Shown in pieces: positions 21,883-42,187 of a stretch of 64,000 bases of DNA. Origin of the DNA: an uncultured Gammaproteobacteria bacterium (GTDB lineage Bacteria > Patescibacteriota > Patescibacteriia > UBA11705 > JABHMO01). The notes beneath the pieces are model-generated. The model made no database searches, was not told the origin of the DNA, and worked only from the letters and a program-made list of their open reading frames with translations. The stretch's first letter is position 1. Each line of letters starts with the position of its first letter. The DNA is taken from NCBI GenBank assembly GCA_964584985.1, contig CAZPBK010000001.1, positions 60,742 through 124,741 of the forward strand, in the 5' to 3' direction. The translations under genes and the position numbers were made by a program.

Positions 21883-21884
21883 CC

Positions 21885-22235
21885 TTACTTAAAATTCAAT
21901 TTTTTAACTTTGAGATATAATTTTGATTTTTTAATATGCTGAATTATTTGTAACAACAAGCCCAACGATAAAGCATAGTAACAATAAAAAGCTATTTGTT
22001 CAGCCGATTTAGGTAATCTAAGCATTAAAAAAATTGGAATAAATAAAAAGAACATAAGACCAAAAAGTAAATAAATTCTCGGATCCCAGTTGAAAAGGAC
22101 AAACAAGAAAAAGCTCCCCAGAAACAAAGCTACTTCTATTCCGAATGATCTATAAAAGATCAAAAAAACAATCAAAAAAGTAAAAAACTTTAAATTATAT
22201 TTTTCCCCGAATATTTTATCTAATTTCTTACTCAT
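21885..22235 (-). CDS. Small integral membrane protein
   Basis: 116 aa with 3-4 TM segments. Overlaps and is co-directional with the flanking membrane-protein genes. Confidence 0.4.
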   Translation of the reverse strand: MSKKLDKIFGEKYNLKFFTFLIVFLIFYRSFGIEVALFLGSFFLFVLFNWDPRIYLLFGLMFFLFIPIFLMLRLPKSAEQIAFYCYYALSLGLLLQIIQHIKKSKLYLKVKKLNFK

Positions 22236-22237
22236 AG

Positions 22238-23488
22238 TTAGTGTTTTATTTTTATTTGCTTAATAAAGCTGTATCCTTTATCGATACAAGCAATGCCAAG
22301 TCCGCCTGATGAATATTCTTCATCGACCACTTCCGTTAACAATTTATAGTCATCACCATCCAATGAAATAAACAAACTAATATTCGGACCTTCAGCCTCT
22401 ATCCTTAACCAATAATAATTATCTTTTCTAAAATTAAAATTAAGTATTTTCCCTTGCTTAATATCCTGCCATCCATCGCTTGTTAATGACATCAAAGACC
22501 AAATGTTACTATTTTCCTTTATAAAAAAGTAATAACCTTTTCCAGTTTTATAATTACCACGGAAAAAGGCGCCACTTCTGCCACGCTGTGGGGCTAATTG
22601 TAGGTCATAAACAAAATCATTAACACTCGAAGCTCTTTTTAGAATAGTGTTATACCCGCTAAAATGGTGAATTTCCAAGACATTGTTGCCATCATTATCA
22701 ATGTTAAGAGTCAGGGTGTCGCTATTGTGCAAATTCCAATCATCGATAAAATCTTTGTTATAAACAAACTTCAAATCATCGATATTTATCATACTTGTTA
22801 ATCCCAACCTTGATTTTATGCTAAATTCAATCTTATTTACCTGATTTATATCAAAATCAGGGTCTTCACTGACTCTGGCCATAAATGAGACGGGCAACCT
22901 GTTAAAAATCCAACCGGAAGACAAATTTGTTATATTATAAATATAATATTCATTCGGATCATCTCCCAATAATCTTATTTTAAAAGATTCTACATTTTGG
23001 GGATCCGAAATATTTGTATAAAACTCTATAAACTTCAAGTTCTTGTAGTTTTCATTTTTACTTTGATCTTCACTGTCTTTTATTTTATCATTAATTGACT
23101 CTTTACTGTTGATGGCTTTTGATATAACTTTTTCTTCTTTTTCTGCCACTATCGTAATACTAGCTTCTCCGTTATGATATGTTCTCTTGTCATAATATCC
23201 ATCACCCTGCCAATTTTCTCCTATTTCAAAATCACTTACCTTTTCCACCTTAAACTCTTTATACTTTTCTGCAAAATTTATTTTTATATTAGCTTTTCCA
23301 AAAAGGATCTCCGATAGACTTGATTTATTTTCTATAGATGTTTGTTCATATTCGTAATCTTGTTTAGTTATAGTTTTTGTTTGGTAATTAATCCAAAAAA
23401 AGGCAAATAAGACTCCGATAATTGCTATCGCTACTCCCATTATTAAAGGTAAACTGCGTTTTATCCAACTTTTAGGTTTTTTTGACAT
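22238..23488 (-). CDS. Membrane-anchored extracytoplasmic protein, unknown function
   Basis: A single N-terminal TM helix (LPLIMGVAIAIIGVLFAFFWINY) followed by a ~390-aa soluble domain rich in Asn, Asp and Tyr. Confidence 0.45.
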   Translation of the reverse strand: MSKKPKSWIKRSLPLIMGVAIAIIGVLFAFFWINYQTKTITKQDYEYEQTSIENKSSLSEILFGKANIKINFAEKYKEFKVEKVSDFEIGENWQGDGYYDKRTYHNGEASITIVAEKEEKVISKAINSKESINDKIKDSEDQSKNENYKNLKFIEFYTNISDPQNVESFKIRLLGDDPNEYYIYNITNLSSGWIFNRLPVSFMARVSEDPDFDINQVNKIEFSIKSRLGLTSMINIDDLKFVYNKDFIDDWNLHNSDTLTLNIDNDGNNVLEIHHFSGYNTILKRASSVNDFVYDLQLAPQRGRSGAFFRGNYKTGKGYYFFIKENSNIWSLMSLTSDGWQDIKQGKILNFNFRKDNYYWLRIEAEGPNISLFISLDGDDYKLLTEVVDEEYSSGGLGIACIDKGYSFIKQIKIKH

Positions 23489-27519: not shown

Positions 27520-28359
27520 TTATTTTACAATTTTTAATAAGGGGACTTTTCTTAGTTCAGGTGCTGAGAGATCGTAATAGTGCAAGTAACTATTATATTC
27601 TCCAAGCAATTCACCGTGGTCTGAAGTAATAAATATAGTTATATTTTGCGGTAGATTATTGATAAGCTTTTCCACATATTTCAAAGCTAGTTTCAAATTG
27701 CCTTCATAGGCTTTTTTAAAATCCTCCTTTGAAAGTTGTTTTTTTCTGATCTTTGAAATAACAGCCTCGTCATTCCCTTCAATGGGATTTTTACTTGAAG
27801 TGATGATACTCGGTTCACCAATCCATGGTCCGTGTGGTTGCATGAACCAAAAAATATTTTTTTTCGAACTATCATAATGCTTTAAAGATTCCTTGTAAAG
27901 TATCTCGGGATGAACAGTATTTAACTTTTTATTCCAACCATAATCCCAAACGTCAATAATATAATCTTTTTTAAAATGGTCTGTTGCTTTATATCCCAAA
28001 ATCTCAATTCCTTGTGAATTTATATGAGGATTTGTAGAAAGTAATTTTATATTTGGATATTTTTTATTAAAGGTTTTTTTGAACCAACCAATTGTGCCAC
28101 TGGCGGGAGAATGAAGAGCTTTTAATTCTCCTTTTAAATGTTTTTTATAGTTTTTTTTAAAATAATCATATCTACAAGCATCCAAAACAATTAGAACATC
28201 CCACTTCTCCTCATTTAAATAGTTCAATTGGCACGAGCCTGTTTTCTTATTAATTAATTTATACAATAAACCAAGAAACAAAAACCTAAAACTACATTTG
28301 CTACGTTTTTGTAACATTTGTTTTAATATAAAAATTAATCTTTTTATGGTTTTTATCAT
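27520..28359 (-). CDS. Second alkaline-phosphatase-superfamily / sulfatase-like protein
   Basis: Motifs LIVLDACRYDYF, TSDHGELLGE and QPHGPW. Confidence 0.5.
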   Translation of the reverse strand: MIKTIKRLIFILKQMLQKRSKCSFRFLFLGLLYKLINKKTGSCQLNYLNEEKWDVLIVLDACRYDYFKKNYKKHLKGELKALHSPASGTIGWFKKTFNKKYPNIKLLSTNPHINSQGIEILGYKATDHFKKDYIIDVWDYGWNKKLNTVHPEILYKESLKHYDSSKKNIFWFMQPHGPWIGEPSIITSSKNPIEGNDEAVISKIRKKQLSKEDFKKAYEGNLKLALKYVEKLINNLPQNITIFITSDHGELLGEYNSYLHYYDLSAPELRKVPLLKIVK

Positions 28360-29051
28360 TTTTTGTTAACAAATTTACAAAACACTGTTGTAAAGCCTAT
28401 CTTATTTTTAAATTCTTGATCAACTTTTTTGTTAAAGTAATTTACAAAAAATTGATCTCTTCGAAATATCCATTTTGATATATATAGATTTAAAACATAA
28501 AAAATTTCCCACCAGGCACCTTTAATAATACTATCCGTTATTTTAAAATTACTTTTTTTTCCTATTTCCTTGATTTTTTTTAATGAATAATGTCTATGGC
28601 CGGTTAACCACCATGCAGGATCAAAAACATTACTGAAAAAGCTTTTATTTGGTGTTGATAAATAAAAAGTCCCGTTTGGCTTTAAAACCCTAGATATTTC
28701 CTTAAACATTTGCCTTTCTGTTTTTTGAGGAATATGTTCAATTACTTCCCAACTGACCACTGTATCAAACTGATTGTCATTAAAAGGTAAACTAAGAGCA
28801 GAGCCTTTAATGAACTTTATTTGAGGATTTTTTATATTTTTTCTTGCAGTTAGTAAATCTTTTTCAGACGGTTCAATTCCTACAACCTTAAAACATTTTT
28901 TGTTTACACAGGCAAGTTCAAACCAGCCGTAACCACAACCAACATCTAAAATACTTTTATTTACCATGTCTGCTTTACTTACAAAGTCTATATTGAATTT
29001 AGTTCTACCGTGCTGTTCAAGTCTTGGCTTTTCATTGACTACATTTTTCAT
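28356..29051 (-). CDS. Class I SAM-dependent methyltransferase
   Basis: Motif I ILDVGCGYGWF, plus post-I acidic and Motif II-like segments. Confidence 0.75.
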   Translation of the reverse strand: MKNVVNEKPRLEQHGRTKFNIDFVSKADMVNKSILDVGCGYGWFELACVNKKCFKVVGIEPSEKDLLTARKNIKNPQIKFIKGSALSLPFNDNQFDTVVSWEVIEHIPQKTERQMFKEISRVLKPNGTFYLSTPNKSFFSNVFDPAWWLTGHRHYSLKKIKEIGKKSNFKITDSIIKGAWWEIFYVLNLYISKWIFRRDQFFVNYFNKKVDQEFKNKIGFTTVFCKFVNKK

Positions 29052-29881
29052 AGATTGGAGTTTACTAAATAATAAGTTCTATTTTCAATAAAATCAACAA
29101 TTTTAAAGCTACTTGAATCAATAATTTTTTCAAATTTTTCTTGATCAATTACATTTTTATGTATTTCCACAAAAATTGACCTTACTCTTTTTTCAAAGAA
29201 ATCAATGGATTTATAAAACACTTTTTCCTCTTCCCCTTCTATATCTATCTTTAATAAATCGATTTTGTAGATTTGGTGTATTTTACAAAATTCTTCAATT
29301 GTATATATTGCAACAAGTTCATTTTTTTTACTTTTGCTTAGGCTGTATGAATCCGGGGAAGCTGATAAATCCAAGTTACCCTTGCCTAAATAGTCTGAAA
29401 TTGCACATTTATATGATTTTATGTTTTTATAATTATTTAATTTCAAATTTTGATTTAATAATTCAAAATTTTGTTTACTGGGTTCCACGGCATAAATTAT
29501 TGGCTTTTTTTGGTATAAATGATTATTCACATAAATTGAAAATAATCCAATGTTCGCTCCAATATCCACGATTATGGGATTATTCGTTGTTGGAAAATAT
29601 TTTTCGGGATATTCAAGATCTGCATTTATTATTACCACTTCACCTAAATCACATGACTTTGTCCTTGCTTTTATCTCTGTTCCATTTCTAAGTTTGTAAA
29701 TCGTATATTGATTTTTGAAAAACCCCAAAAAATCCAAAACCGCTGTTTGAATATTTTTTATTGCTTTTAATGTCAAATAAATTTTTTTTATCATTTGTTT
29801 AATAAATATTTTATTCCAACAACAACCCTTAAAGCAAATAAATTGATTGATAAAAGCGGATGACTTAATAATCGTTTCCAT
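29048..29881 (-). CDS. FkbM-family methyltransferase
   Basis: Motif IVDIGANIGLFSIY with an FkbM-like length of 277 aa. Overlaps neighbours in an operon-like arrangement. Confidence 0.65.
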   Translation of the reverse strand: METIIKSSAFINQFICFKGCCWNKIFIKQMIKKIYLTLKAIKNIQTAVLDFLGFFKNQYTIYKLRNGTEIKARTKSCDLGEVVIINADLEYPEKYFPTTNNPIIVDIGANIGLFSIYVNNHLYQKKPIIYAVEPSKQNFELLNQNLKLNNYKNIKSYKCAISDYLGKGNLDLSASPDSYSLSKSKKNELVAIYTIEEFCKIHQIYKIDLLKIDIEGEEEKVFYKSIDFFEKRVRSIFVEIHKNVIDQEKFEKIIDSSSFKIVDFIENRTYYLVNSNL

Positions 29882-30666
29882 TTACCATTTTCTGTAAAAA
29901 CTCCTAAATACCTATATTTAATTCCTAACTGCTTTTTTACATCAGGATCATCCTTCCCCCATTTTTTTATATATGGTTCAATAGTTGGTACATATTTACT
30001 TTTCTTATTTAAATAAACACCTAATGTTAGCCATTCCTCATGATGATAGATTTTATTTTTCGTAATACTTAATTTATTTGTTATTTCTTTTATCATTTTT
30101 GTTAAATCCCAATCATCCGGAGCAAACGGCATATTGATTTCATCAAACCCACTGACTTGTTCAAAAATATCTTTTTTAAAAACTCTCAAAGCATCAATGC
30201 AAGTTTGGTTATAAAAACTCCTTTCAAAATTTCTGATTTTCCCAAACCAACCTTTTCCCATTACGAACTCAGGAACATATAAAGCATCGAATTGTTGTAT
30301 TTTTTCGGCAATTTCTTGAAAAAGGCCCTTTTCAAAGGTCATATCCGCATCAGGAACAAATAAAATCTCACCATTTGCCTTTGATGCCCCGAAATTCACT
30401 TGTGCGCCGCGAAAGTTTTCCACATTCGTTAGCTTTTTTTCGTTTGCCAAATTATATACTTTATCAATCAAACTGCGAGCTTTTTCGCGTGTTGAATCTT
30501 TTGAATTATTGTCAACCACAATAATCTCCACTCTGTCTTTTGGATAATCAAGAGAATCAATTGAATTAATAATGTTTTTGATATTCTTTTCTTCGTTATA
30601 GGTTGCAATAATTGTTGAAATTAGAGGTAATTTATGCATAGTTGTTATCTTATTTTCTAAAATCAA
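29791..30666 (-). CDS. Glycosyltransferase family 2
   Basis: LISTIIATYNEEKNI, VEIIVVDNNSKD and DADM motifs. Confidence 0.75.
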   Translation of the reverse strand: MILENKITTMHKLPLISTIIATYNEEKNIKNIINSIDSLDYPKDRVEIIVVDNNSKDSTREKARSLIDKVYNLANEKKLTNVENFRGAQVNFGASKANGEILFVPDADMTFEKGLFQEIAEKIQQFDALYVPEFVMGKGWFGKIRNFERSFYNQTCIDALRVFKKDIFEQVSGFDEINMPFAPDDWDLTKMIKEITNKLSITKNKIYHHEEWLTLGVYLNKKSKYVPTIEPYIKKWGKDDPDVKKQLGIKYRYLGVFTENGKWKRLLSHPLLSINLFALRVVVGIKYLLNK

Positions 30667-32119
30667 TTAAATGGCCGAAAAATTTCATACTCGACCTGAA
30701 CAAATATTTTACATCATCAAGGTTTTTGATATTTATAATTTTTCGCCAAATAAATTGCGGGCTTATAAATGATTTATATAAACCTTGAGTTAATTCCTTA
30801 ACATCAGCCGTAGTTAACTCGGATTTCATGACTTGTTCCCTTTGATCGTATCTGTCATAATCAACAAAATTCAGTAATTTTTTTTCTCGGCAATATTTAT
30901 ATAAAGGCGTTCCAGGATAAGGGATAACGACCGTAGCTTGAAGTGTGTCAACATAGCCTTTTTTGAATAATCTTTTAGCCAAATCAACAGTTTTTTTAGC
31001 CTCGGCTTTACTTTCCCATGGATAGCCAATCATAGCCGTAATATGAGGCTCCAATCCTGCCTGCTTACATATTTTTAAATTCGGTTCAATTTCTTCCACC
31101 TTCAAACCTTTTTTAATTTTATCCAAAGTTTCTTGATTGGCTGATTCCAAACCAAAAAGAATAAATCTAAAACCGGCTTTTTTCATTAATTTCCAAGTTT
31201 CAATATTTTTAATTCCATTAATCCTCATGTTACAACTCAAGGTTACTTTTTTATTGAAACCATATTTAATCATTCCTCGGCAAAATTCATATAACCAGTC
31301 CCCGATTGGTAAACTTCCGGAATCTTCCATTATTTCTTTAACTCCAAGATCTATTAGTCTTTTAACTTCGCTCAGAGCTTGTTGAGCTGACATTTTTCTG
31401 AATTTTGAACCAGGGAAAAGAGTTGTCCATGAGCAAAAAGTACATTTCCCCCACCAACAATCTCTACCACTCATTAAATATGAACCTGGTGTATATTTAA
31501 AATTACCATTTTTGTAGGCATAAAGTTTCCATTCGGTCAATTGTCTGTCAATTAAGGGTAATTCTGTCAGCTTATGAGAATGAAAACCATATTCACCGGT
31601 ATTATTTATTAAACTACCTTCTCTATAATAAATTCCCTTTTCCAAACTTGTTGCCTTATCCAAGTGATTAGCAATACTTAATAACAAAAAGTCAAAATCA
31701 CCTGATTTTATTACATAATCTACTTTAGAGTTATTTAGTGATTCTTCCGGCAGAGCTGTGACATGATCTCCCATCAATACAATTTTCAACTTCCAATCTT
31801 CAGTCTTTGATGAAATCTTTTTTAATTTATTTATAATTTGCCAATGCTTTTTTATAACTGGTGTTTTGGTCTCAATCGCGACAAGTTCCGGTTTTTTTTC
31901 AACAATAAAGTCAAACCATTCTTTTTCCGATTGTTCTTTGGCAATTCCATCAGCCCAAAGAACTTCGTGACCATTATTTTTTAATAATGTTGCTGCATAG
32001 GCCGGAATAACAGGATAAATATAAGTGGGACTATTAAACCATTGGAATTGTCTATTTTGGGTAAGAAGTGGAACCCCTTTTTTTGATTCAATTGGAGGAA
32101 AACAAATAGCAACCTTCAT
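30650..32119 (-). CDS. B12-binding-domain radical SAM protein
   Basis: N-terminal cobalamin-binding-like domain. The radical-SAM cluster reads DCWWGKCTFCSW (CxxxCxxC) at ~residue 220. 489 aa. Confidence 0.75.
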   Translation of the reverse strand: MKVAICFPPIESKKGVPLLTQNRQFQWFNSPTYIYPVIPAYAATLLKNNGHEVLWADGIAKEQSEKEWFDFIVEKKPELVAIETKTPVIKKHWQIINKLKKISSKTEDWKLKIVLMGDHVTALPEESLNNSKVDYVIKSGDFDFLLLSIANHLDKATSLEKGIYYREGSLINNTGEYGFHSHKLTELPLIDRQLTEWKLYAYKNGNFKYTPGSYLMSGRDCWWGKCTFCSWTTLFPGSKFRKMSAQQALSEVKRLIDLGVKEIMEDSGSLPIGDWLYEFCRGMIKYGFNKKVTLSCNMRINGIKNIETWKLMKKAGFRFILFGLESANQETLDKIKKGLKVEEIEPNLKICKQAGLEPHITAMIGYPWESKAEAKKTVDLAKRLFKKGYVDTLQATVVIPYPGTPLYKYCREKKLLNFVDYDRYDQREQVMKSELTTADVKELTQGLYKSFISPQFIWRKIINIKNLDDVKYLFRSSMKFFGHLIDFRK

Positions 32120-32120: not shown

Positions 32121-33092
32121 TTATCTTAATTTGCTAGTTAAATTTTTTACGCACAAACCTTTTAAAAAATTGTAGCCATAACTTAAATGAGTACCTAATA
32201 TATAGGGTACTACTCCAAAACTGATTTTCCAATCTTTTTCATATTTTCTGATTTGCCAAACAGCAATCACAAGACCAATTAGATACACTAACCAACCAAA
32301 TATATATAGATTTAAAATTAATTTTGAAATAAGACTTCCAATCAGTCCGATCACAACAAATACAAGAAATAAGCTGGGAATAAAATATTTTAATTTAAGG
32401 GATGTTTTTGGAAATTTTTTAGCAAAATAACCTCTATGCAAGCCATAAGCACCTACCTGCTTCAAATGTTTTAAAAAACCTTTTCTTCTGTGATGAAAAA
32501 CAATTAGCTCCGGATTGTATAATATTTTCTTTCCAGTATTTATTAAGTCCAGACACATTAAGGTATCTTCACCTGGCCAATATTTTGATTTGAATCCACC
32601 GATATTTTCAAAATCAACCTTTTTTACTGAGAGATTAACACTGGGCCAATCATCAACAAATTTTTTTTTACCAACTGACACATATCTTTCGGCACATCCG
32701 CCTGAAAAACCGCTCAAAAAAACTGCACCAGATAGTTTTTGGCCAAAACTATCATCTTTAGGTGTTATAGCCGGACCGGCTACAGCACCAAGGTCAGAAT
32801 TTTTAAAAGATTTATCTAACTTTTCCAAAAAATCCTCTTTTGGGTAAGCATCATCATCAATAAATATTAAAATTTCGCCTTGAGCATGATTCATAGCCAT
32901 ACTTCTCTTCATGGCCGGCCCCCCCGGACCACTTGATATTTGTTTTGTTTTTGGCCAATTTTCACTATTGCTTCGGTCCGGAAAAATTAATATTTCATAA
33001 TCACTTCTTTCAATTTTAAGAATGTTCGGAACGGCTTCCCGAATATAATTATTTATTTCCTTAACTGGAATTATAAAACTATATTTAATCAT
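32121..33092 (-). CDS. Glycosyltransferase family 2 with C-terminal transmembrane anchors
   Basis: YSFIIPVKEINNY, FIDDDAYP (DxD) and a GxGGxxxKR-like segment. The last ~90 aa form two TM helices. Confidence 0.65.
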   Translation of the reverse strand: MIKYSFIIPVKEINNYIREAVPNILKIERSDYEILIFPDRSNSENWPKTKQISSGPGGPAMKRSMAMNHAQGEILIFIDDDAYPKEDFLEKLDKSFKNSDLGAVAGPAITPKDDSFGQKLSGAVFLSGFSGGCAERYVSVGKKKFVDDWPSVNLSVKKVDFENIGGFKSKYWPGEDTLMCLDLINTGKKILYNPELIVFHHRRKGFLKHLKQVGAYGLHRGYFAKKFPKTSLKLKYFIPSLFLVFVVIGLIGSLISKLILNLYIFGWLVYLIGLVIAVWQIRKYEKDWKISFGVVPYILGTHLSYGYNFLKGLCVKNLTSKLR

Positions 33093-34389
33093 GTTTTTTT
33101 CCTATACAATAATATTTAAAACCCAATTCATTCATTTTCTTGGGGTTATGAGCATTTCTGCCATCAATAAACACATTGCCCTTCATTGATTCTTTAATTC
33201 TTTTTAAATCAATTTGTTTGAATTCATCCCAATCAGTACATAAAATAATTGAATCAACATTTTTTGCTGCTTGATAGGGACATTCAAAATAATTTATATT
33301 CGGATAGTGTTTTTGAAAATTATTTAAGGCCGCTGGGTCAAATACATTTACTTTGATCTCATGATCCAAAAGATTTTGAACTAATTCCAGTGATGGAGCA
33401 AACCTTATGTCATCAGTATTTGGTTTAAAGGATACCCCCCAAATGGCTACGGATAAATTATTAATTTCCTTATTATAAGCCTTTGATAGTTTTTGAAATA
33501 GTGCCTTTTTCATTTTATTATTCAATAATTCTACTTTTTCCAATATTTCAAAATTTTCATTATTCTGTTTACCGATATGGATCAAGGCTTGAACATCTTT
33601 GGGAAAACAAGAACCTCCATAACCACAACCAGCATCTAAAAAGGCGTTCCGACCAATTCTTTTATCAAGCTTCATTCCTTGAGAAACTTTGTTCACATCA
33701 GCCCCGGCCTTTTCACAGATATTGGCAATTGAATTAATAAAAGAAATGCTTGTAGCCAAAAAGGCGTTTGAAGCGTATTTTATCATTTCTGCACTTTTTA
33801 AATCAGTTGTAACAATCGGACAATTTAACGGCTGATATAATTTTTTCATTATACTCAACGCTTTATAGTCTTTACTATCACAACCGAGGACAACTCTATC
33901 GGAATTAAGAAAATCATCAACTGCAGTCCCTTCACGCAAAAATTCCGGATTTGAAACAACATCAAAAGAACCATTATATTGTTCTTGTATTATTTGGGTT
34001 ACTAAATCACCTGTACCGACCGGAACTGTACTTTTATTAACAATTATTGTATATTTTTTTATATTTTGACCAATACTTTTGGCAACATCTTTGATAAACG
34101 AAAGATCGCACTCTCCGTTTTCTTTTGGCGGTGTACCAACGGCAATAAAAACCATATCCACCTCATCAAAAAATGTTTGAATATTATTTTCAAAAAACAG
34201 CCTCTTTTCTTTGATGTTTTTACAAACCATTTCCTCCAATCCCGGCTCATAAATGGGAATATTCCCCTTTTGCAATAAGGCAATTTTATTTTTGTCTACA
34301 TCAATACAAGTTACATTATTGCCTAAATTCGCTAAGCATGTTCCAGTAACTAAGCCAACATAGCCTGTGCCAATTACAGCAATTTTCAT
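33085..34389 (-). CDS. ugd: UDP-glucose 6-dehydrogenase
   Basis: Rossmann motif MKIAVIGTGYVGLVTG and catalytic block GYGGSCFPKD. 434 aa. Confidence 0.9.
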   Translation of the reverse strand: MKIAVIGTGYVGLVTGTCLANLGNNVTCIDVDKNKIALLQKGNIPIYEPGLEEMVCKNIKEKRLFFENNIQTFFDEVDMVFIAVGTPPKENGECDLSFIKDVAKSIGQNIKKYTIIVNKSTVPVGTGDLVTQIIQEQYNGSFDVVSNPEFLREGTAVDDFLNSDRVVLGCDSKDYKALSIMKKLYQPLNCPIVTTDLKSAEMIKYASNAFLATSISFINSIANICEKAGADVNKVSQGMKLDKRIGRNAFLDAGCGYGGSCFPKDVQALIHIGKQNNENFEILEKVELLNNKMKKALFQKLSKAYNKEINNLSVAIWGVSFKPNTDDIRFAPSLELVQNLLDHEIKVNVFDPAALNNFQKHYPNINYFECPYQAAKNVDSIILCTDWDEFKQIDLKRIKESMKGNVFIDGRNAHNPKKMNELGFKYYCIGKKHD

Positions 34390-34395
34390 AAATTA

Positions 34396-35334
34396 TTATA
34401 TTACTTTTCTGAAATATTTTATAGTTTTTTGTAAACCTTGTTCTAGTGCTATTCCCGGTTGCCAATTTAATTTTTCCTTAGCTAAGCCGATATCTGGCTT
34501 TCTTTGTTTGGGATCGTCCTTAGGCAATTCCTTATATATAATTTGGCTAGTGGAACCGGGAACTAAATCCAATATTTTCTCTGCCAATTGTTTAATAGTA
34601 AATTCATCGGGATTTCCCAGGTTAACAGGCCCAATAAAATTATTTTTATTATTCATCATCAATAGCATACCATTTATTAAGTCATCCACATATTGGAACG
34701 CCCTGGTTTGTCCACCATCACCAAAAATTGTAATCGGTTGATTCTTTAATGCTTGAACGATAAAATTTGAAACAACTCGACCATCATTCGGATGCATATT
34801 AGGACCATAAGTATTAAAAATTCTAATAATACGAATATCAACTTTATTTGAACGATGGTAATCCATAAACAAACATTCAGCTGCTCTTTTTCCTTCATCA
34901 TAGCAGGAACGAATTCCAATAGGGTTTACATTTCCCCAATATATTTCTGATTGAGGATGAACATCAGGATCGCCATATACCTCCGATGTTGATGCTTGCA
35001 GAATTTTTGCTTTTACCCTTTTAGCTAAATCCAACATGTTAATGGCACCAGATACTGATGTTTTAATTGTTTTGATTGGATTATACTGGTAATGCACCGG
35101 GGAAGCCGGACAGGCTAGGTTATAAATTTGATCGACTTCTAATATTATAGGTTCGACAATATCGTGTCTTATAAATTCAAAATTTCTATTATTTAATAAG
35201 TCTTTTATATTATCTTTTGTTCCCGTAAAACAATTATCAAGGCAAATGACTTTATTTTTCTGTTCTAATAATTTTTTACATAAATGTGAACCTATAAAAC
35301 CCGCGCCTCCTGTTACTAAAATGGTTTTGTTCAT
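34396..35334 (-). CDS. uxs: UDP-glucuronate decarboxylase (UDP-xylose synthase family)
   Basis: [22 protein letters not shown] and CYDEGKR motifs. Collinear with UXS1/ArnA-decarboxylase-type SDR enzymes. 312 aa. Confidence 0.8.
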
Positions 35335-36287
35335 AGATTTTTTGATCTTTCTTTAATTATATACATTGGTCGATTTATTACTTCTCTTTGGATGTTCCCT
35401 ATATATAAGGCTATTAAACCGAGACAACTCAAAACTATACCAATAAAAAATATTATTAAAACAGCTAGTTGAGCCGGTCCGGAAAAGTTAAAAGACCACG
35501 CAGGATAGAGATATTGTGTTACCAGCATGAATAAACCAATCGTCCCGGAAATTAAAATTATAAAAATACCTAAATACCCCGCTAACTTAAGTGGCAATAA
35601 GCTATTAGAAACAAATGAAGACAAGGCCAGTTTAGCTAGCTTTAAATAGCTATAACCTGGTTGTCCGCTTTTTCTTGGTCGAGCTTGAAAATTAACATAA
35701 GCCTTATTAAAACCAATCCAATTCAGTAATCCTCGAGTAATTCTTTGCTTTTCAGTTAACTTGTTGAATTCTTTAATAATTTTTTTGTCTATTAAACGAA
35801 AATCAGTTGAGTGGGGTTTTATTTTTGTCTCACTGATTAAATTTATAAGTTTATAATAAAATATTGCTCCCAATTTCCTTATTAAGCTTTCTCCAACATT
35901 AGCATCTCGAACTCCAATAACCATATCATTTCCTTGTTCCCATTTATCGATGAATTTATTTATTGTTTCCGGCGGATGTTGAAGATCCGCATCTATAATA
36001 ACGGCCGCTTGTCCGTTGACATGATGCAATCCCGCACTAGTGGCGATTTCTTTACCAAAATTTCTAGAAAAAGAAATATAATTAACATTTACATCTTTCT
36101 TTGCCAATTCTTTTATAGTGGTTAAACTCGTATCCGTACTTCCGTCGTCAACAAAAATGAACTCAAAGTTTTTATTCAATTCTTTTAATTCGTTGTATAA
36201 TTCTCTTATTGTTTCCTGTTCATTATAGACAGGAATAACTATTGAAATTCTAAACATTTTTTTTATTTCTATATAAATTTGGATCAA
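35331..36287 (-). CDS. GT2 polyprenyl-phosphate glycosyltransferase (DPM1/GtrB/ArnC-like) with two C-terminal TM helices
   Basis: [23 protein letters not shown] and DADLQHPP motifs, plus a C-terminal membrane anchor. Confidence 0.75.
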
Positions 36288-36828
36288 TTACCTCCTTCAT
36301 TTTGTTGGAGTTAAGAAAAACATCAAGAAAGCTGATAATTTTATTGATATTTTCATCGGCATTAACAAAAAAATCATTGTATGAAACGCTTAAGACATCA
36401 AAATTATCTTTTTTGTTCAACCAAGCCTTAACTTCTTCTAAATGCTTTTCATACAAGGTTTTTATTTCCTTATCAGAAATGCTACTTTCTTTTTTTCTAT
36501 GAGCCAACATCTTATTTTGAGATCTTATTATTTCCTCCAAATCTCTTTCCATGAATATAACTTTATATCTGTAATTTTTGGGTAAATCATAAAGTAACAT
36601 TGAAATTATTTTCACAACCCTTCCCTTGGCTCGCTTCAACCATAATGAATCCTTTTTTGTTTTTTTTACTTTTTCAAACTCATAATACCCTTTTGGATTG
36701 TCTTTATCAGGTTTTCTAATATTGTCAACCAAAGATTTCAAACCTCCAGCTTCCAACATGTTCATCATCAAAGAGGTTCCGGACCTAGGTAGGCCGGAAA
36801 CTATAATTATCGGATTTTCATTTGACAT
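36250..36828 (-). CDS. PAPS-dependent sulfotransferase (Sulfotransfer_3-like)
   Basis: 5'-PSB motif IIIVSGLPRSGTSLMMNML. 192 aa, a small cytosolic sulfotransferase size. Context includes PAPS synthesis genes. Confidence 0.65.
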   Translation of the reverse strand: MSNENPIIIVSGLPRSGTSLMMNMLEAGGLKSLVDNIRKPDKDNPKGYYEFEKVKKTKKDSLWLKRAKGRVVKIISMLLYDLPKNYRYKVIFMERDLEEIIRSQNKMLAHRKKESSISDKEIKTLYEKHLEEVKAWLNKKDNFDVLSVSYNDFFVNADENINKIISFLDVFLNSNKMKEVIDPNLYRNKKNV

Positions 36829-38105
36829 ATATTTTTGTTAGTAATGAAAAAATGTAAAATAAGCAACAAAAGAGAAAAGACCACAGAAATCAAATATACA
36901 TTCAAAATTTGTGAAATATTGTCATGGAAGTTTAATAATAACAACACTTCCAATACTACGGAACCGACCAAAACATATGTAAAATTTGTTTTTCTTATAG
37001 ATAGAGCAAATAAAGAAATTAAATTAATAATAGAATAAACTGTAAATACTACAGCAATCTTCCATAGTAATGGTTGAATGGAAATATATTCCGCTCCCAA
37101 AATCAAATTAATAATCCTATCTGGGAACAAAAAATAAACAAGAGTAATAACTCCGGAAACAAAAGAGACTACAAGTAGGGCGATCTTGAAGACTTTAAGA
37201 TTACTGATTCTCATAATTTTATTTTTTGCAGCGATGGGAAACAAAACCACTGGGACTGAACTGGTGGCAAAAAATATTATTTTCCCAAATAAAACTAAAC
37301 CGGCATATAAACCTGCATTCTTTTGATCTAAAAAATGTTTGGCGAACAAAACATCAATGTTATATATAAAAACCAAACATAACGATACAATAAAGACCGG
37401 CTTCATATATGAAAATAAGCTTTTCCAATCAATATTTGTTTCTTCATTCTTTAAGACATCGCGCCGAGAAAACCAAGCATAGACCATTATTATAAATATC
37501 ACAGAGGCAAGAGGGATTGCAATCATTGCCCCCAATATGCCTAAACCTATTTTGACCAAAAAAACACCTATTAACAACTTTGAAAAGACCATGACTATTT
37601 GACTGAAAGATAATCTGACAAACTGTTGCAACCCTCTCATGAAACCCAATCCAACGGGCACCAGAAATGAGAACAAAAAATAACCGGACAAAACAATTAA
37701 GGGGGCTATTGAATCCAAGTTTAGCAATTTTTTTACTTGGCTGGAAAACAATAAAAATACAATTGATAAAAAAACTCCATAAAACGAAGCCTTTTTTATA
37801 ATTTGTTTTAAAAAACTAAAAATCTTGTTTTTCTGATTTTTTCCTGTTAAATCAGCAACTGTCTTTGAAACAACATGATTTATTGTTTGTGTAGGTACTG
37901 CTAAAATGAGAGTGATTGATAACAAGGCAGCCAAAAGTCCGAAATCCTCAGGGCCCAACATCCGACCCATAATTATTTGAAATAAATAATTACCAAAGCC
38001 TACAATTAAAGACCCCACAAAAACCATTAAGCTTCCGCTAAGTAACTTATTTTTTTTTATACTGGAGAGGCTTAATTCTCTAAATGAAAAATGCCGGTTA
38101 CTCAT
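36807..38105 (-). CDS. wzx: Wzx-type polysaccharide flippase (MOP superfamily)
   Basis: 432 aa with ~12 TM helices, typical of polysaccharide biosynthesis protein flippases. Confidence 0.65.
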   Translation of the reverse strand: MSNRHFSFRELSLSSIKKNKLLSGSLMVFVGSLIVGFGNYLFQIIMGRMLGPEDFGLLAALLSITLILAVPTQTINHVVSKTVADLTGKNQKNKIFSFLKQIIKKASFYGVFLSIVFLLFSSQVKKLLNLDSIAPLIVLSGYFLFSFLVPVGLGFMRGLQQFVRLSFSQIVMVFSKLLIGVFLVKIGLGILGAMIAIPLASVIFIIMVYAWFSRRDVLKNEETNIDWKSLFSYMKPVFIVSLCLVFIYNIDVLFAKHFLDQKNAGLYAGLVLFGKIIFFATSSVPVVLFPIAAKNKIMRISNLKVFKIALLVVSFVSGVITLVYFLFPDRIINLILGAEYISIQPLLWKIAVVFTVYSIINLISLFALSIRKTNFTYVLVGSVVLEVLLLLNFHDNISQILNVYLISVVFSLLLLILHFFITNKNICQMKIR

Positions 38106-38106: not shown

Positions 38107-38895
38107 CTAAATCTTAGCTAATTCTTTAATAACATTATAATGGATTTTCCCATTACTAACAACAAAACCGTTATAATTCATGGGATCTCTTTTATTGTAA
38201 ACAATGTTATCACCAAACATATCCGTAAAAACACCACCCGCCTCTTTAACAATAATATCAGAGGCGCAAACATCCCATTCACCGGTTTTATCACTGGTAT
38301 TTAGATATAAATCACCGAATTGGTCGGCTATTTTAGCGGATTTAAGTCCGGCACTACCGCAAGTTTGCATTTTATCTATACTTAACTTTTTAGCCAGATT
38401 CATTTCCCTATCCAAAAGATGATTGCGACTACGCAATAAAATGATTTCCGAATAATCTTTTTTATCGGAAACTTGTAATTTAACGGTTTGACCGCGATGC
38501 TCCATATAAGCTCCTTGGCCGGCTGACGCCCAAAAAAGTTTATCCTCGGCCGGCTGATAAACCGCCCCCAAAACCGGACGACCATTTTGACTTAAACCGA
38601 TCATAATGGAAAATTCGCCGGTCTGCTGAATAAAATCCTTGGTTCCGTCCAAAGGATCAATTATCCAAACCTTTTCCTGATACAACCGCTTATTTTCTTT
38701 ATCGGTTTCCTCGGACAAAATACCGTAATTCAATTGTTTTAGTTTTTGCAAAATAACCTTTTCCGAAGCTAAATCAGCTTGAGTAACCGGACTGTCCCCG
38801 CCTTTATCCCGGATATTTAAATCTTGACCGTAAAATTCCATAACTTTTTTTCCGGCTTGTTTTATGGTACTCTTCAATATACTTAATTCCGACAT
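38107..38895 (-). CDS. cysQ: 3'(2'),5'-bisphosphate nucleotidase CysQ-type (inositol monophosphatase family)
   Basis: IMPase-family motifs EETDKE, WIIDPLDGTKDF and WDVCASDIIVKEAGG. Chosen as CysQ rather than SuhB from the PAPS-gene context. Confidence 0.65.
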   Translation of the reverse strand: MSELSILKSTIKQAGKKVMEFYGQDLNIRDKGGDSPVTQADLASEKVILQKLKQLNYGILSEETDKENKRLYQEKVWIIDPLDGTKDFIQQTGEFSIMIGLSQNGRPVLGAVYQPAEDKLFWASAGQGAYMEHRGQTVKLQVSDKKDYSEIILLRSRNHLLDREMNLAKKLSIDKMQTCGSAGLKSAKIADQFGDLYLNTSDKTGEWDVCASDIIVKEAGGVFTDMFGDNIVYNKRDPMNYNGFVVSNGKIHYNVIKELAKI

Positions 38896-38978: not shown

Positions 38979-39401
38979 ATGAAAAACATTTTGAACAACG
39001 GAAGGTTAAGGTGTTCGGGAAGATCATGGCAATTAGTTGAAAGCGACAAGTCCTGTATTCCTGGCGGTAAAAAAAACGGTGATCATTTGATTATTCTTTT
39101 TTCAGACAAAAATAGATATTGTAGTCGCGAAGAACTGGGAGAACTCTATGTAATAGCCGAACAACTGGCTACGGAATACGCACATCAGATCAATCTTTAC
39201 CGTATTGTTAAAAACGGCAAAGGCCTGCAATTTCGTAAAGGCTTTCATCTTCATCTCATCCTTCCGAAAAAAAGAAATTTCATTGCTCGTTGTGTTGAAC
39301 CAAGCGTTTCTATGATAAAACTGAGAAAATGGCAAGGTGAGAAGGTCTTTAAGTATGTTTTGAACAAATTACTGACCAGAGGACAACAGCAAAAAAGATA
39401 A
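38979..39401 (+). CDS. Divergent HIT-superfamily-like protein (tentative)
   Basis: A strong SD sits upstream (cacaggagg-N6-ATG). A HIT-like core reads GDHLIILFSDK...YRIVKNGKGLQFRKGFHLHLILP; this is an HxHxI motif rather than HxHxH. Elevated GC. Lone plus-strand gene inside the cysQ-cysNC array. Confidence 0.35.
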   Translation: MKNILNNGRLRCSGRSWQLVESDKSCIPGGKKNGDHLIILFSDKNRYCSREELGELYVIAEQLATEYAHQINLYRIVKNGKGLQFRKGFHLHLILPKKRNFIARCVEPSVSMIKLRKWQGEKVFKYVLNKLLTRGQQQKR

Positions 39402-39457
39402 TATCTCCATCCCTTCAAAAACTTCCAACCTCAAAAAGGTGAGTCACACTCGCCTTT

Positions 39458-41269
39458 TTATTTTTGTAAAAACTTATTTTTATACAAATAATCAATAATC
39501 TGCTCCACACATTCATCAACTGTATTTTCATGAGTTTGACAACAAATATGAGGATTGTCCGGTGCTTCATATGGAGCGGAAATACCGGTAAAATTATCAA
39601 TTTCACCATTAAGAGCTTTTTTATACAAACCTTTGACATCCCGTTTAATACAAATATCCAAAGGGGCGTCAACAAAAACCTCCAAAAATTTATCAGTATG
39701 AAAAGAGGCTGTTTTCCTATGCTCTTTATAAGGTGAAATAAAAGTGGCCAAAACCAAAACATCGTGTTTGCTAAGCAAGCCGGCCACATAAGAAACTCGT
39801 TCAATATTTTTATCGCGATCCTCTTTGGAAAATCCCAAATCTCTGGTTAAAGCCTGTCGCACAATGTCACCGTCCAATCGCTCGCAACGAACCCCCATGT
39901 TTTTCAAAACCACATATAATTTATCAGCAATAGTACTTTTGCCCGATCCGGAAAGTCCGGTAAACCACATCACACCTCCTTTATTGTCTTTTACCCGGTG
40001 AATATAACCACCGGTTTCAGCATTTTTTACTTTTTTATTTATTATACCCGCACCCACGGTATTTTTACTTATTGGATCAATAATAATAAAATTTCCGGTA
40101 TGACGATTTTTTTGGTATGGATCAAAAGACAATGAATCCTGTGTGCGAATGTAAACTCGCCCCATTTCATTTAAATAAAGTTTTGATTTTTCCTCACGAT
40201 GCAAATCATCCATGTTTATTCTGTATCTTAATCTTTCCACAAAACCATTGCTCGTTCTGCTGGTGTGCTTGATAATATAATTTTTATTTTCTGCCAAAGG
40301 CTCATCGCTCATCCAACAAACAGTGGCCTCAAAATTATCTGAAACCTCAGACATATTTTGTTCTTTAACTATCATATCTCCTCGACTAATATCCAGTTCG
40401 TCCTCCAAAGAAAGCAAAGCGGACAAAGGATTAAAAGCATAATCTTGTCTGGAACCGTTAACATAAATCTCCTTTATTGAAGATTTATTATTGGCCGGTA
40501 AGATTCTGACTCGATCACCGCGCCGAATAATTCCACCCTCAATTTTTCCGGTATAACCACGGAAATCTTGATTCGGACGGACAACACTCTGCACCGGGAA
40601 ACGAAAATCAATCAAATTTCTATCAGCGGTTATTTGAATATTTTCCAAATAATCCAAAATTGTTCGTCCGTTATACCAAGGCATATTATGACCACGATCC
40701 ACCACCATATCTCCTTTAAGCGCGGAAACCGGTGTAAATTGTAAATCTTTTATATTTAGTTTGGAACAAAAATCAGAAAAATCTTGTTTAATTTTATTAA
40801 AAATCTTTTGATCATAATCCACTAAATCCATTTTATTGACTACAACCAAAACATGCGGAATACCCAAAAGAGCGGCTATGAATAAATGTCTTTTAGATTG
40901 AATAAGTAAGCCTTTTCTGGCATCACACAAAATCAAAGCCAAATTTGAGTTAGAAGCCCCGGTCATCATGTTTCTGGTATATTGTTCATGCCCCGGTACA
41001 TCGGCAATAATAAAACGCCGTTTGGGAGTGGAAAAATAACGATAAGCCACATCAATGGTTATCCCTTGTTCCCTTTCCGCTTTTAAGCCGTCCAAAAGAA
41101 AAGCCAAATCAACTTCCTTGCCCACTTTATCACAAGTTTTTTTTACTGATAAATACTGATCCTCAAAAATAGAATGACAATCATGAAGCATTCTTCCAAT
41201 CAGGGTTGATTTTCCGTCATCCACGCTCCCGGCGGTGCTTATTCTCAAAAGTTCAATATCATTTTGCAT
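39458..41269 (-). CDS. cysNC: Bifunctional sulfate adenylyltransferase subunit 1 / adenylylsulfate kinase (CysN-CysC fusion)
   Basis: N-terminal GTPase motif STAGSVDDGKSTLIGRL and DVPGHEQY. C-terminal APS kinase P-loop FTGLSGSGKSTIA and LDGD. 603 aa. Confidence 0.9.
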   Translation of the reverse strand: MQNDIELLRISTAGSVDDGKSTLIGRMLHDCHSIFEDQYLSVKKTCDKVGKEVDLAFLLDGLKAEREQGITIDVAYRYFSTPKRRFIIADVPGHEQYTRNMMTGASNSNLALILCDARKGLLIQSKRHLFIAALLGIPHVLVVVNKMDLVDYDQKIFNKIKQDFSDFCSKLNIKDLQFTPVSALKGDMVVDRGHNMPWYNGRTILDYLENIQITADRNLIDFRFPVQSVVRPNQDFRGYTGKIEGGIIRRGDRVRILPANNKSSIKEIYVNGSRQDYAFNPLSALLSLEDELDISRGDMIVKEQNMSEVSDNFEATVCWMSDEPLAENKNYIIKHTSRTSNGFVERLRYRINMDDLHREEKSKLYLNEMGRVYIRTQDSLSFDPYQKNRHTGNFIIIDPISKNTVGAGIINKKVKNAETGGYIHRVKDNKGGVMWFTGLSGSGKSTIADKLYVVLKNMGVRCERLDGDIVRQALTRDLGFSKEDRDKNIERVSYVAGLLSKHDVLVLATFISPYKEHRKTASFHTDKFLEVFVDAPLDICIKRDVKGLYKKALNGEIDNFTGISAPYEAPDNPHICCQTHENTVDECVEQIIDYLYKNKFLQK

Positions 41270-41284: not shown

Positions 41285-42187
41285 TTAAAAATAACCGGAT
41301 TGTTTTTTATCCTCCATGGAACTATCACCACTATGATCAATTATTCTATTTTCCCTCTCGGATTTTTTAGCCAATAAAACTTCTTTTAAAATATCTTCCA
41401 CCGTGGAGGCCGAAGATTCAACCGCTCCGGTACAAGGCACACAGCCAAGGGATCTGAATCGGCACATTACTTCTCCCACTTTTTCATCTTTCTTTACCCT
41501 AGTGGATTCTTCCACCGGCACCAAAAGTCCATTTCTTCTAACCACCTTTCTTTTTTTGGCAAAATAAAGTGGTACTATTTCAATATTTTCTTCTTTAATA
41601 TAATTCCAAACATCCGACTCGGTCCAATTGGAAAGAGGAAAAACACGCATGGTTTCTTGTTTATTTAAATGCGAATTAAAATTATGCCAAAGTTCGGGGC
41701 GCTGATTTTTAGGATCCCACTTGCCCATCGAATTACGATGGGAATAAACTCGCTCTTTGGCTCTGGATTTTTCTTCATCTCGCCGAGCACCGCCTATGGC
41801 CGCATCAAATCCATGCTTTTTTATAGAGTCAAGCAAAGCTTGAGTTTTTAAATAACTACAACAAGTATCTACGCCGTGAATAGCCGGATGCAGACCTTGT
41901 TTGAATTTTTCATGCTGTTCCACAATTAATTTTACGCCTACCTTTTTAGTATAATAATCTCTAAAGTCAGTCATTTGTTTTGGTTTGTAGCCGGTATCAA
42001 TATGCATTAAAGGAAAAGGCACTTTTCCCGGATAAAAAGCTTTGCGCGCCAAATGCAATAGACAAGAAGAATCCTTGCCAACGGAATACAGCATTACCGG
42101 ATTTTTAAACTCCGCCGCCACTTCCCTAATTATGTAAATCGCCTCAGACTCTAACTCCTTTATATGCGACAATTTATAATTTTCCAT
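41285..42187 (-). CDS. cysD: Sulfate adenylyltransferase subunit 2
   Basis: PAPS-reductase-fold N-terminus [29 protein letters not shown]. 300 aa. Directly adjacent to cysNC. Confidence 0.9.

Follow-up and report, generated by a model that had tools for sequence, protein, structure and literature searches.

The supply of UDP-xylose (UDP-Xyl) from UDP-glucose (UDP-Glc) by way of UDP-glucuronate (UDP-GlcA) is a two-step process that is encoded in bacteria by ugd-uxs gene pairs and whose second enzyme is known in humans as UXS1 (hUXS1). Genes for the same two steps lie at positions 32121-36287 of a 64,000-nucleotide stretch of contig CAZPBK010000001.1 (assembly GCA_964584985.1, forward-strand positions 60,742 to 124,741), which comes from an uncultured bacterium of the Patescibacteriota lineage and is called the window in what follows. 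When compared with the described bacterial pairs, the two enzymes, a UDP-glucose 6-dehydrogenase (UGD) and a UDP-glucuronate decarboxylase or UDP-xylose synthase (UXS), are unremarkable, whereas the Patescibacteria host and the neighbouring sulfation genes are unusual. We consider it probable that the interval serves as the supply core, for nucleotide sugars, of an envelope-glycan operon that is conserved in Patescibacteria and to which sulfation is an accessory.

Systems that unite uronic-acid supply, sulfation and lipid-linked assembly have been described elsewhere. In the N-glycosylation pathway of Halobacterium salinarum, a methylated tetrasaccharide with sulfated iduronic acid (IdoA) and glucuronic acid (GlcA) is assembled on dolichyl phosphate (DolP) (PMC11980604). 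The window resembles this pathway in its uronic-acid supply, in family 2 glycosyltransferases (GT2s) of the kind that act on a polyprenyl-phosphate carrier, in a soluble sulfotransferase, in methyltransferases that may act on the lipid-linked glycan, in a Wzx-like flippase and in a glycosyltransferase of the GT-C fold. The H. salinarum pathway differs in being archaeal, in using AglB (STT3) as its transferase and in having no UXS or xylose, and the matches of window proteins to Agl models are weak and below cutoff. In Synechocystis, the xss cluster for synechan has sulfotransferase genes placed among glycosyltransferases and Wzx, as in the window. According to the sections of the xss report drawn on here, that cluster is cyanobacterial and includes Wzy, polysaccharide co-polymerase (PCP) and regulators, whereas the window operon has no Wzy or PCP; synechan contains rhamnose, mannose, galactose and glucose, and no xylose (PMC8205485). 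Genes for the synthesis of 3'-phosphoadenosine 5'-phosphosulfate (PAPS) and a cysQ-like gene are co-located in the window, and those same sections make no mention of PAPS-synthesis genes, a GtrB-type GT2 or a GT-C for xss (PMC8205485). The Gtr/Arn three-component systems consist of GtrB or ArnC, a flippase and a GT-C; the window shares the GtrB-type GT2 and a GT-C in the same operon, but its operon encodes a Wzx-type flippase, with no GtrA-family one detected, and no Arn-specific enzymes.

The nucleotide-sugar enzymes

The interval contains four open reading frames (ORFs), all on the minus strand and with the same limits as in a preliminary description of this DNA. Across the locus, long ORFs were assigned to families with E-values between 1e-35 and 1e-240, well past chance. 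As the preliminary description had stated, ugd and uxs sit between GT2 genes (32121-33092 and 35331-36287), and sulfation genes are found close by: a sulfotransferase at 36250-36828, a cysQ-like gene at 38107-38895, cysNC at 39458-41269 and cysD at 41285-42187.

The UGD (33085-34389, minus strand) contains three UDPG_MGDP_dh domains, namely the NAD-binding, central and UDP-binding ones (E 4e-67, 4e-35 and 5e-32), and its residues 258-265 read GGSCFPKD, which corresponds to the catalytic-cysteine motif GGxCxxKD. Among NCBIfam models, the scores are 540 bits for TuaD and 366 for AglM versus 177 for UDP-ManNAc dehydrogenase and 75 for TviB; among proteins of known structure, bacterial UGDs score 389-426 bits versus 194 for GDP-Man dehydrogenase and 130 for ManNAcA dehydrogenase. 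By these measures the protein is a predicted UDP-glucose 6-dehydrogenase and neither a UDP-ManNAc nor a GDP-Man dehydrogenase, so that the original designation of the gene as ugd stands and the UDP-ManNAc dehydrogenase alternative is excluded by 540 versus 177 bits. It is nevertheless predicted to be no TuaD orthologue, because its score falls short of TuaD's equivalog cutoff (700).

The uxs gene (34396-35334, minus strand) encodes a single-domain protein of 312 aa that matches hUXS1 with 411 bits over residues 3-311. Scores to other families are 141 bits for UDP-GlcA 4-epimerase (UGAepi), 137 for GalE-type epimerases, 112 for RmlB, 93 for UDP-apiose/xylose synthase (UAXS) and about 80 for ArnA. 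The protein has the GxxGxxG NAD site, the sequence YDEGK and the triad of extended short-chain dehydrogenases/reductases (SDRs), Thr118/Tyr147/Lys151, and it also keeps Ser119, Glu120, Asn176 and Arg277. Ser119, Glu120 and Arg277 are invariant across UXS enzymes and missing from the counterpart epimerases, and in hUXS1 Glu120 and Arg277 shut the active site and block the release of the 4-keto-pentose (PMC3438964). We therefore assign 34396-35334, by family score and signature residues, as a canonical UXS and not a 4-epimerase, dTDP-sugar dehydratase, ArnA or UAXS; the identification of this gene as a UXS-family decarboxylase was correct, and no grouping with 4-epimerases or dTDP-sugar dehydratases was seen.

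How ordinary is this gene pair? A survey of 80 metagenomic loci that carry the UXS proteins nearest to that of the window (66-76% identity) found ugd adjoining uxs in 31, and in 18 of the 38 loci that are well flanked, meaning at least 3 kb on either side. A GtrB-like GT2 is nearby in just 2 of those 38. The sulfotransferase family, sought with a hidden Markov model that recovered both positive controls, occurred in none of the 80 loci. Because about half of the well-flanked loci have the pair and none of the 80 has the sulfotransferase family, the ugd-uxs pair is a standard bacterial arrangement, and the unusual thing here is that sulfation genes lie close to it.

A conserved operon core and a probable accessory sulfation module

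From the cysQ-like gene to the GT-C gene at 23811, 15 genes follow one another with intergenic gaps of -22 to +10 nt, and because of this spacing they are packed as a single operon. Upstream of the GtrB-like GT2 the order is sulfotransferase, Wzx and cysQ-like, with cysNC and cysD farther off; downstream of UGD come a second GT2 (GT2_b), a B12-binding radical SAM enzyme, a third GT2 (GT2_c), two methyltransferases, two alkaline-phosphatase-superfamily proteins and the GT-C.

The closest named homologues of window proteins are from Falkowbacteria and other Patescibacteria. When its nearest relatives on long contigs were traced, the GtrB-like GT2 proved to belong to a seven-gene core (Wzx, GtrB-like GT2, UXS, UGD, GT2_b, the B12-binding radical SAM enzyme and GT2_c) that recurs in two other Patescibacteria loci, L093 and L094, and in a partial version in a third, L014. 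Identities between the window and L093/L094 are 54-59% for the GtrB-like GT2, 73-80% for UXS, 58-65% for GT2_b and 69-70% for the B12-binding radical SAM enzyme. L094, from a Falkowbacteria-type relative, shares synteny with the window to either side, where the identities are 75% for a phosphoribosyltransferase, 66% for PNP, 61% and 49% for family 4 glycosyltransferases (GT4s) and 47% for a 354-aa GT2. In L094, Wzx comes immediately after PNP and the GtrB-like GT2 immediately after Wzx; cysD, cysNC, orf140 (see below), cysQ and the sulfotransferase are all missing. In L093, the interval between Wzx and the GtrB-like GT2 (7113-7949) holds a gene for an AP_endonuc_2 protein, a xylose-isomerase-like TIM barrel, and no sulfotransferase. 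Because this gene occupies the position that the sulfotransferase has in the window, the interval between Wzx and the GT2 appears to be a variable accessory slot of the operon.

The sulfation genes of the window, all on the minus strand, form a complete module. cysD (41285-42187), for the small subunit of sulfate adenylyltransferase, matches PAPS_reduct (E 2e-50) and scores 451 bits with the NCBIfam CysD model, above its cutoff. cysNC (39458-41269) encodes a fusion of the large subunit with adenylyl-sulfate (APS) kinase; it scores 804 bits with NF004035 (cutoff 715), contains the G1 motif GSVDDGKST and the kinase P-loop GLSGSGKS, and is identical in sequence to HMB26353.1, which NCBI names adenylyl-sulfate kinase (Patescibacteria group bacterium). 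The cysQ-like gene (38107-38895), the first of the packed operon and separated from wzx by 1 nt, would encode a 3'(2'),5'-bisphosphate nucleotidase that removes 3'-phosphoadenosine 5'-phosphate (PAP); it matches Inositol_P (E 1e-56), and its best NCBIfam model is bisphos_cysQ with 196 bits, under the cutoff of 229. The PAPS-type sulfotransferase (36250-36828), between wzx and the GtrB-like gene, is a soluble protein of 192 aa with matches to Sulfotransfer_3 and Sulfotransfer_1, a PRSGTS 5'-phosphosulfate-binding loop and no transmembrane (TM) segment. Its best match among solved structures has 21 bits, and it does not significantly resemble any carbohydrate sulfotransferase of known structure.

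Because the syntenic L094 has the UGD/UXS core without the sulfation genes, we judge these genes to be an accessory, lineage-specific add-on at two insertion points and not part of an integral toolkit, and the proposed unit of GlcA, Xyl and sulfation comes apart on the same comparison. The module was more likely gained than lost, a direction that we infer from the taxa in which the sulfotransferase has its nearest named relatives: the closest homologues are 50-58% identical, and all named ones are outside Patescibacteria, in Omnitrophota, Nitrospirae, Acidobacteria, Thermodesulfobacteriota and Myxococcales. In Thermodesulfobacteriota and Nitrospirae loci, alkaline-phosphatase-superfamily genes (Phosphodiest or Sulfatase) adjoin homologues of this sulfotransferase of some 190 aa (L095, 1-483 and 1750-5833; L096, 7709-9064), and the pairing of the two families may recur in exopolysaccharide clusters.

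The cysQ-like gene and cysNC are separated by a 562-nt gap that contains a convergent ORF and a hairpin. The ORF, orf140 (38979-39401, plus strand), lies inside the sulfation insertion and encodes 140 aa; two metagenome assemblies annotate it as a gene, it matches no family, and it converges with cysNC at the hairpin. The hairpin (39433-39459) has a 12-bp stem flanked by A and T runs and looks terminator-like both ways. A scan for promoters and terminators showed no enrichment over shuffled sequences, with 93 promoter-like sites against 94 expected and 12 terminator-like sites against 11, and for that reason the hairpin is suggestive only as a terminator.

A probable polyprenyl-phosphate route

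The GT2 at 35331-36287 (minus strand) is of the GtrB/ArnC type, a polyprenyl-phosphate glycosyltransferase with a Glycos_transf_2 domain (PF00535, E 9e-36). Gene callers disagree about its start, which is either TTG at 36287 (318 aa, JGI) or ATG at 36257 (308 aa, ENA). Its best NCBIfam model is PgfS (230 bits), with 145 bits for ArnC; against solved structures it scores 228 bits with the Synechocystis GtrB (5EKP) over residues 3-303, and 126 with ArnC. Two C-terminal TM helices (229-247 and 264-282) provide the membrane anchor that the preliminary description had noted.

The stop of this gene overlaps the start of uxs by 4 nt, and the same gene stands beside UGD/UXS in four loci (the window, L093, L094 and L014). 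Homologues that are 54-58% identical also occur in two loci without UXS or UGD (L097 and L098). A UXS-linked GtrB subclade was considered and rejected, since a pairwise identity matrix gives 53-59% for linked homologues and 54-58% for unlinked ones. A search of genome contigs with the GtrB-like GT2 returned just matches of 25-37% identity in unrelated taxa, with no synteny information. The sequence evidence assigns no specific donor sugar to this enzyme.

Because the operon encodes both a GtrB-type GT2 and a GT-C, a polyprenyl-phosphate route for the locus appears well supported, in line with the polyprenyl-phosphate-sugar route proposed at the outset. That proposal had also pointed to GT-C/YfhO-like membrane proteins; proteins of the GT-C fold are indeed encoded at 23811-26189 and 54894-56594, but there is no YfhO-family match, and the matches are instead to an AftD N-terminal domain and to PMT_2.

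How the glycan might be built

The locus can be modelled as a lipid-linked assembly line. As judged from sequence, UGD is predicted to convert UDP-Glc to UDP-GlcA and UXS to convert UDP-GlcA to UDP-Xyl, while CysD and CysNC would make PAPS and CysQ would remove PAP. At the cytoplasmic face, the conserved GT2s would incorporate UDP-Xyl, and possibly UDP-GlcA, into a polyprenyl-linked glycan, and the soluble methyltransferases would act on the glycan while it is lipid-linked. In the window lineage, the soluble 192-aa sulfotransferase would likewise sulfate the lipid-linked glycan, using PAPS from CysD/CysNC, with PAP cleared by CysQ. Wzx would then flip the modified intermediate; the GtrB-type enzyme would give a polyprenyl-phosphate sugar donor to the GT-C, and the GT-C would complete or transfer the glycan outside the membrane. 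There is precedent for the sulfation and methylation of a lipid-linked glycan before flipping in the N-glycan pathway of H. salinarum (PMC11980604), and the synechan xss cluster offers a precedent for sulfotransferases within a Wzx-type cluster (PMC8205485).

Several points weigh against this picture of a supply core with accessory sulfation. Neither an initiating phosphoglycosyltransferase nor a Wzy was found in the operon. The cysD-cysNC pair appears to be a transcription unit apart from the operon, because of the 562-nt gap with its convergent ORF and hairpin. GC content gives no sign of a foreign origin, with the cys genes matching the flanking DNA and the sulfotransferase matching the low-GC operon. 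The insertion or deletion could represent a loss in L094 instead of a gain here, and the acceptor of the sulfotransferase could be something other than a glycan.

Elsewhere in the window, the gene at 468-1664 encodes a WecG/TagA-family glycosyltransferase with a NUDIX domain fused to its C terminus, and this homologue implies a linkage-unit-type pathway on undecaprenyl diphosphate (Und-PP) elsewhere in the genome. A separate small glycan cluster at 11576-15705 consists of genes for a 507-aa Wzy_C/O-antigen-ligase-like membrane protein, a 148-aa ORF, a GT2 and a GT4, and it could be the source of the polymerase or ligase that is absent from the main operon.

The preliminary description had seen in the locus a toolkit like that for glycosaminoglycans (GAGs) or proteoglycans, with GlcA, Xyl and sulfate as coordinated building blocks of an acidic, sulfated heteropolysaccharide. 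The genes for UGD, UXS, a sulfotransferase and PAPS synthesis do form a physical cluster, and sulfated uronic-acid glycans exist in prokaryotes, for example the H. salinarum N-glycan with its sulfated IdoA and GlcA (PMC11980604). However, when all window ORFs of 100 aa or more were scanned with Pfam and NCBIfam, no GAG polymerase (HAS, KfiA/KfiC, KfoC, PmHS or GT47/GT64) appeared, nor did any hexosamine-supply enzyme, GT14 xylosyltransferase or linkage-region glycosyltransferase (GT7/GT31/GT43). The glycosyltransferases that the scans did find are small generic GT2, GT4 and GT-C proteins, and the three operon GT2s are single-domain proteins of 291-323 aa. The ugd-uxs pairing is generic in bacteria, UDP-GlcA may be a mere intermediate on the way to UDP-Xyl, and L094 manages with the core and no sulfation genes. 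We regard the GAG-like interpretation as very unlikely. Of the product predicted in the preliminary description, a sulfated glycan remains a reasonable prediction, but "acidic" lacks support, since UXS may consume all of the UDP-GlcA. An aminoarabinose-type interpretation, in which UGD and an SDR would make UDP-4-keto-pentose for modification of a lipid or the envelope, is more improbable still. UGD, an SDR decarboxylase, an ArnC-like GT2 (126-145 bits) and a GT-C do correspond to the backbone of the Arn pathway, but the SDR keeps the Glu120 and Arg277 that hold back the 4-keto-pentose in hUXS1 (PMC3438964), and its 411 bits to UXS compare with about 80 to ArnA. Moreover, there is no ArnB aminotransferase, ArnA formyltransferase domain or ArnD deformylase in the window, where the sole formyltransferase is Fmt, beside def. 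Both of these interpretations were rejected because required enzymes are absent from the window.

Two other alternatives concern the way in which the lipid carrier is used. In one, the GtrB-like GT2, its translation coupled to that of uxs, would make polyprenyl-phosphate-xylose. The B12-binding radical SAM enzyme, the methyltransferases and the sulfotransferase would modify this product on the lipid, and once it had been flipped the AftD-like GT-C would transfer it, much as in the Arn and Gtr systems with a pentopyranose in place of their sugars. The overlap of the GT2 stop with the uxs start, the recurrence of the GT2 beside UGD/UXS in the window, L093, L094 and L014, the GtrB-type fold with two TM helices and the GT-C of the operon all fit this idea, and the related ArnC of the Arn pathway (126-145 bits) uses a UDP-pentose made from UDP-GlcA. 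The GT2s of L097 and L098, though, are equally close without any UXS or UGD, linked and unlinked GT2s are not separable by pairwise identity, and a GtrB-like gene accompanies UXS in only 2 of the 38 well-flanked loci. The two other operon GT2s could also take UDP-Xyl directly. The described three-component routes for pentofuranoses start from phosphoribosyl pyrophosphate (PRPP) or methylthioadenosine, with no GtrB-type route among them (PMC11127046), and we judge a dedicated lipid-linked xylose route to be unlikely.

The other alternative follows the archaeal Agl scheme: the GtrB-like enzyme would initiate on a polyprenyl monophosphate, the GT2s would add GlcA and/or Xyl, methylation and sulfation would follow, an AglR-like Wzx would flip the product, and the GT-C would transfer it en bloc to a surface protein or wall polymer. 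In its favour, no phosphoglycosyltransferase of the Bac_transf or MraY/WecA type was found within the 64-kb window, there are weak model matches of the GtrB-like GT2 to AglJ (44 bits), of UGD to AglM (366, below cutoff) and of GT2_b to AglG (33), and Hbt. salinarum sulfates and methylates its DolP-bound tetrasaccharide before flipping (PMC11980604). All Agl scores are far below their cutoffs, however, and the bacterial models TuaD, PgfS and GtrB match better; a phosphoglycosyltransferase may lie outside the window, with the WecG/TagA homologue at 468-1664 implying an Und-PP-linked pathway in the genome, and the GT-C proteins are not orthologues of STT3/AglB. This scheme, too, is in our opinion doubtful.

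A combined version can be imagined in which a xylose glycan is built on a polyprenyl monophosphate through GtrB-type initiation (possibly as polyprenyl-P-xylose), remodelled by the B12-binding radical SAM enzyme, methylated, in some lineages sulfated by a horizontally acquired module, and then handled by Wzx and the GT-C. A literature search found no description of polyprenyl-P-xylose as a bacterial donor, and we would give this version little credence. If it were true, an archaeal Agl-like or Arn-like logic would operate in a minimal episymbiotic bacterium, and sulfation would be a swappable accessory for surface charge. The interpretation that we prefer is still that of a conserved nucleotide-sugar supply core with accessory sulfation.

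Other genes of the operon

The remaining operon genes are also on the minus strand. The Wzx/MOP-family flippase (36807-38105) matches Polysacc_synt and Polysacc_synt_3 (E 2e-11 each), has about 12-14 hydrophobic segments and is conserved in L093, L094 and L014. GT2_b (32121-33092) is a membrane-anchored Glycos_transf_2 protein with two C-terminal TM helices and weak matches to the MftF, EpsD and AglG models. It is always followed by the B12-binding radical SAM enzyme (30650-32119 in the window, 13833-15308 in L093, 12177-13637 in L094), which among the core proteins is second only to UXS in conservation. This enzyme, with Radical_SAM and B12-binding domains, is HpnJ-like, but its 173 bits to that best model are far under the cutoff of 578, and a search of solved structures gave AprD4 with 33 bits, which assigns no function; C-methylation and ring rearrangement are possibilities for its glycan chemistry. 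GT2_c (29791-30666) is soluble and is 43% identical to its counterpart in L094 and 29% in L014. The two methyltransferases are an FkbM-family protein (29048-29881; Methyltransf_21, E 1e-17) and a class I SAM methyltransferase (28356-29051; Methyltransf_11, E 2e-23) that is 49% identical in L014.

Of the two alkaline-phosphatase-superfamily proteins, that at 27520-28359 has a weak match to Sulfatase (PF00884, 25.5 bits) over profile positions 126-268 only, while that at 26193-27518 matches the family at E 1e-34 and has no signal peptide or TM segment. The latter reads APITPYSLPSIMSG where C/S-x-P-x-R is expected, with Thr at the nucleophile position; a formylglycine-dependent sulfatase was considered for this gene and rejected, since the Cys/Ser nucleophile motif is absent despite the match to the Sulfatase fold. 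The formylglycine motif and a signal peptide are lacking in both proteins. The last tightly linked gene of the operon, 3 nt from the preceding one, encodes the GT-C-fold membrane glycosyltransferase (23811-26189), a protein of 792 aa with a GT-C_AftD match (E 1e-10), about 13 TM segments plus a C-terminal one, and a large extracytoplasmic C-terminal domain.

Beyond the GT-C, after a gap of 322 nt, three more genes occupy 20257-23488. They encode a 416-aa exported protein with a single TM segment, a 116-aa protein with three, and a 541-aa protein with ten that scores 137 bits with the model "MmpA family trehalose lipid delivery protein", under its cutoff of 210. These genes possibly share in the export or transfer machinery of the operon.

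A second UXS-like enzyme in a separate cassette

Modification of mycobacterial and corynebacterial arabinogalactan with galactosamine (GalN) depends on an epimerase (Rv3634c), the polyprenyl-phosphate sugar synthase PpgS (Rv3631), its partner Rv3632 and the GT-C Rv3779 (PMC9671496). A cassette at 50265-53348 of the window (minus strand throughout) resembles this system: an SDR gene (52344-53348) is the first gene, followed by a PpgS-like GT2 of 220 aa without TM segments (51680-52342), a small membrane protein of the DUF2304 family that is like the PpgS partner Rv3632 (51333-51677; PF10066, E 3e-20, three TM segments) and an additional GT2 of 354 aa (50265-51329; compare Cgp_0396), with a GT-C nearby. 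The cassette differs in that its SDR is derived from UXS and not from GalE, and the 142 bits of the synthase to its best NCBIfam model, PpgS, are below the equivalog cutoff of 370. The arrangement of SDR, TM-less GT2 of about 221 aa and DUF2304 protein is found in all five loci examined (the window, L011, L012, L099 and L100), and the 354-aa GT2 follows in four of the five. Upstream of the cassette, the window, L012 and L099 have a PMT_2 GT-C (in the window a PMT_2/STT3-like membrane glycosyltransferase at 54894-56594, minus strand, E 2.5e-11), and the other two have GtrA. No UGD lies near the cassette in the loci besides the window among the five. By gene content, the cassette is best read as a system separate from the UGD/UXS operon.

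The SDR at 52344-53348 had been described as a second UXS-family paralogue. It is UXS-like overall, with 227 bits to hUXS1 and 92 to the next family, but that description does not survive inspection of its residues: it has Ser118, Val120, Arg176 and Ala277, so that Glu120 and Arg277 are lost and Arg stands at the Asn176 position. Among its 120 best homologues, which are from Patescibacteria and 52-100% identical, Val120 is present in 119, Arg176 in 119 and Ala or Gly277 in 107. The UDP-GlcA 4-epimerase BcUGAepi (6zl6), which scores 81 bits against this SDR, carries Ser at position 120 and Thr at both 176 and 277 and reads TSS...FTVYGP...KQTW, whereas the SDR reads SSV...FRTYGP...ALP. As far as these residues can tell, the SDR matches neither the UXS nor the UDP-GlcA 4-epimerase signature, and it is probably not a decarboxylase. 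By analogy with the arabinogalactan system, it would most likely supply a UDP-sugar to the polyprenyl-phosphate sugar synthase by epimerisation or another redox-neutral step. Members of this family are annotated in sources as "UDP-glucuronate decarboxylase" or "GDP-mannose 4,6-dehydratase", and both annotations are probably wrong for the cassette SDR.

Further genes in the window

A radical SAM/SPASM protein is encoded at 47545-48525, between two GT4 genes; a distant relative (26% identity) occurs elsewhere in the gene order of L094 (15621-16640), after a GT2_c fusion. No Cys-type sulfatase is present as a maturation target for the window protein. A 120-aa ORF at 45772-46134 matches only the C-terminal half of protein-L-isoaspartate O-methyltransferase (profile positions 91-209 of 210) and may be truncated, split or mis-called at its start. 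Dispersed in the window are also genes for a radical SAM protein (2317-3204), a Memo/LigB-like protein (7417-8205) and AMMECR1 (16642-17196), which we take to be, perhaps, three parts of an AmmeMemoRadiSam system.

Implications

The locus belongs to an already known kind, that of bacterial glycan clusters in which nucleotide-sugar supply is combined with a sulfotransferase. The ugd and uxs enzymes are textbook ones and their pairing is common, and so the claim of a GAG-like toolkit adds little. The second UXS-like enzyme is of use for annotation, as it exposes a large Patescibacteria family of UXS-like proteins without the UXS signature residues, in need of correction. The locus is also of interest in that a bacterium of the candidate phyla radiation (CPR), a group with small genomes and host dependence, appears to invest in the sulfation of a surface glycan, and that related Patescibacteria operons differ by a complete sulfation module (cysD, cysNC, cysQ and sulfotransferase). 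According to the xss report, sulfated bacterial polysaccharides are essentially restricted to cyanobacteria (PMC8205485). A literature search that combined Patescibacteria, sulfotransferase and glycosyltransferase found nothing relevant. Surface glycans of the CPR are candidates for a role in host attachment, and an accessory that alters their charge is thus open to study by comparative genomics.

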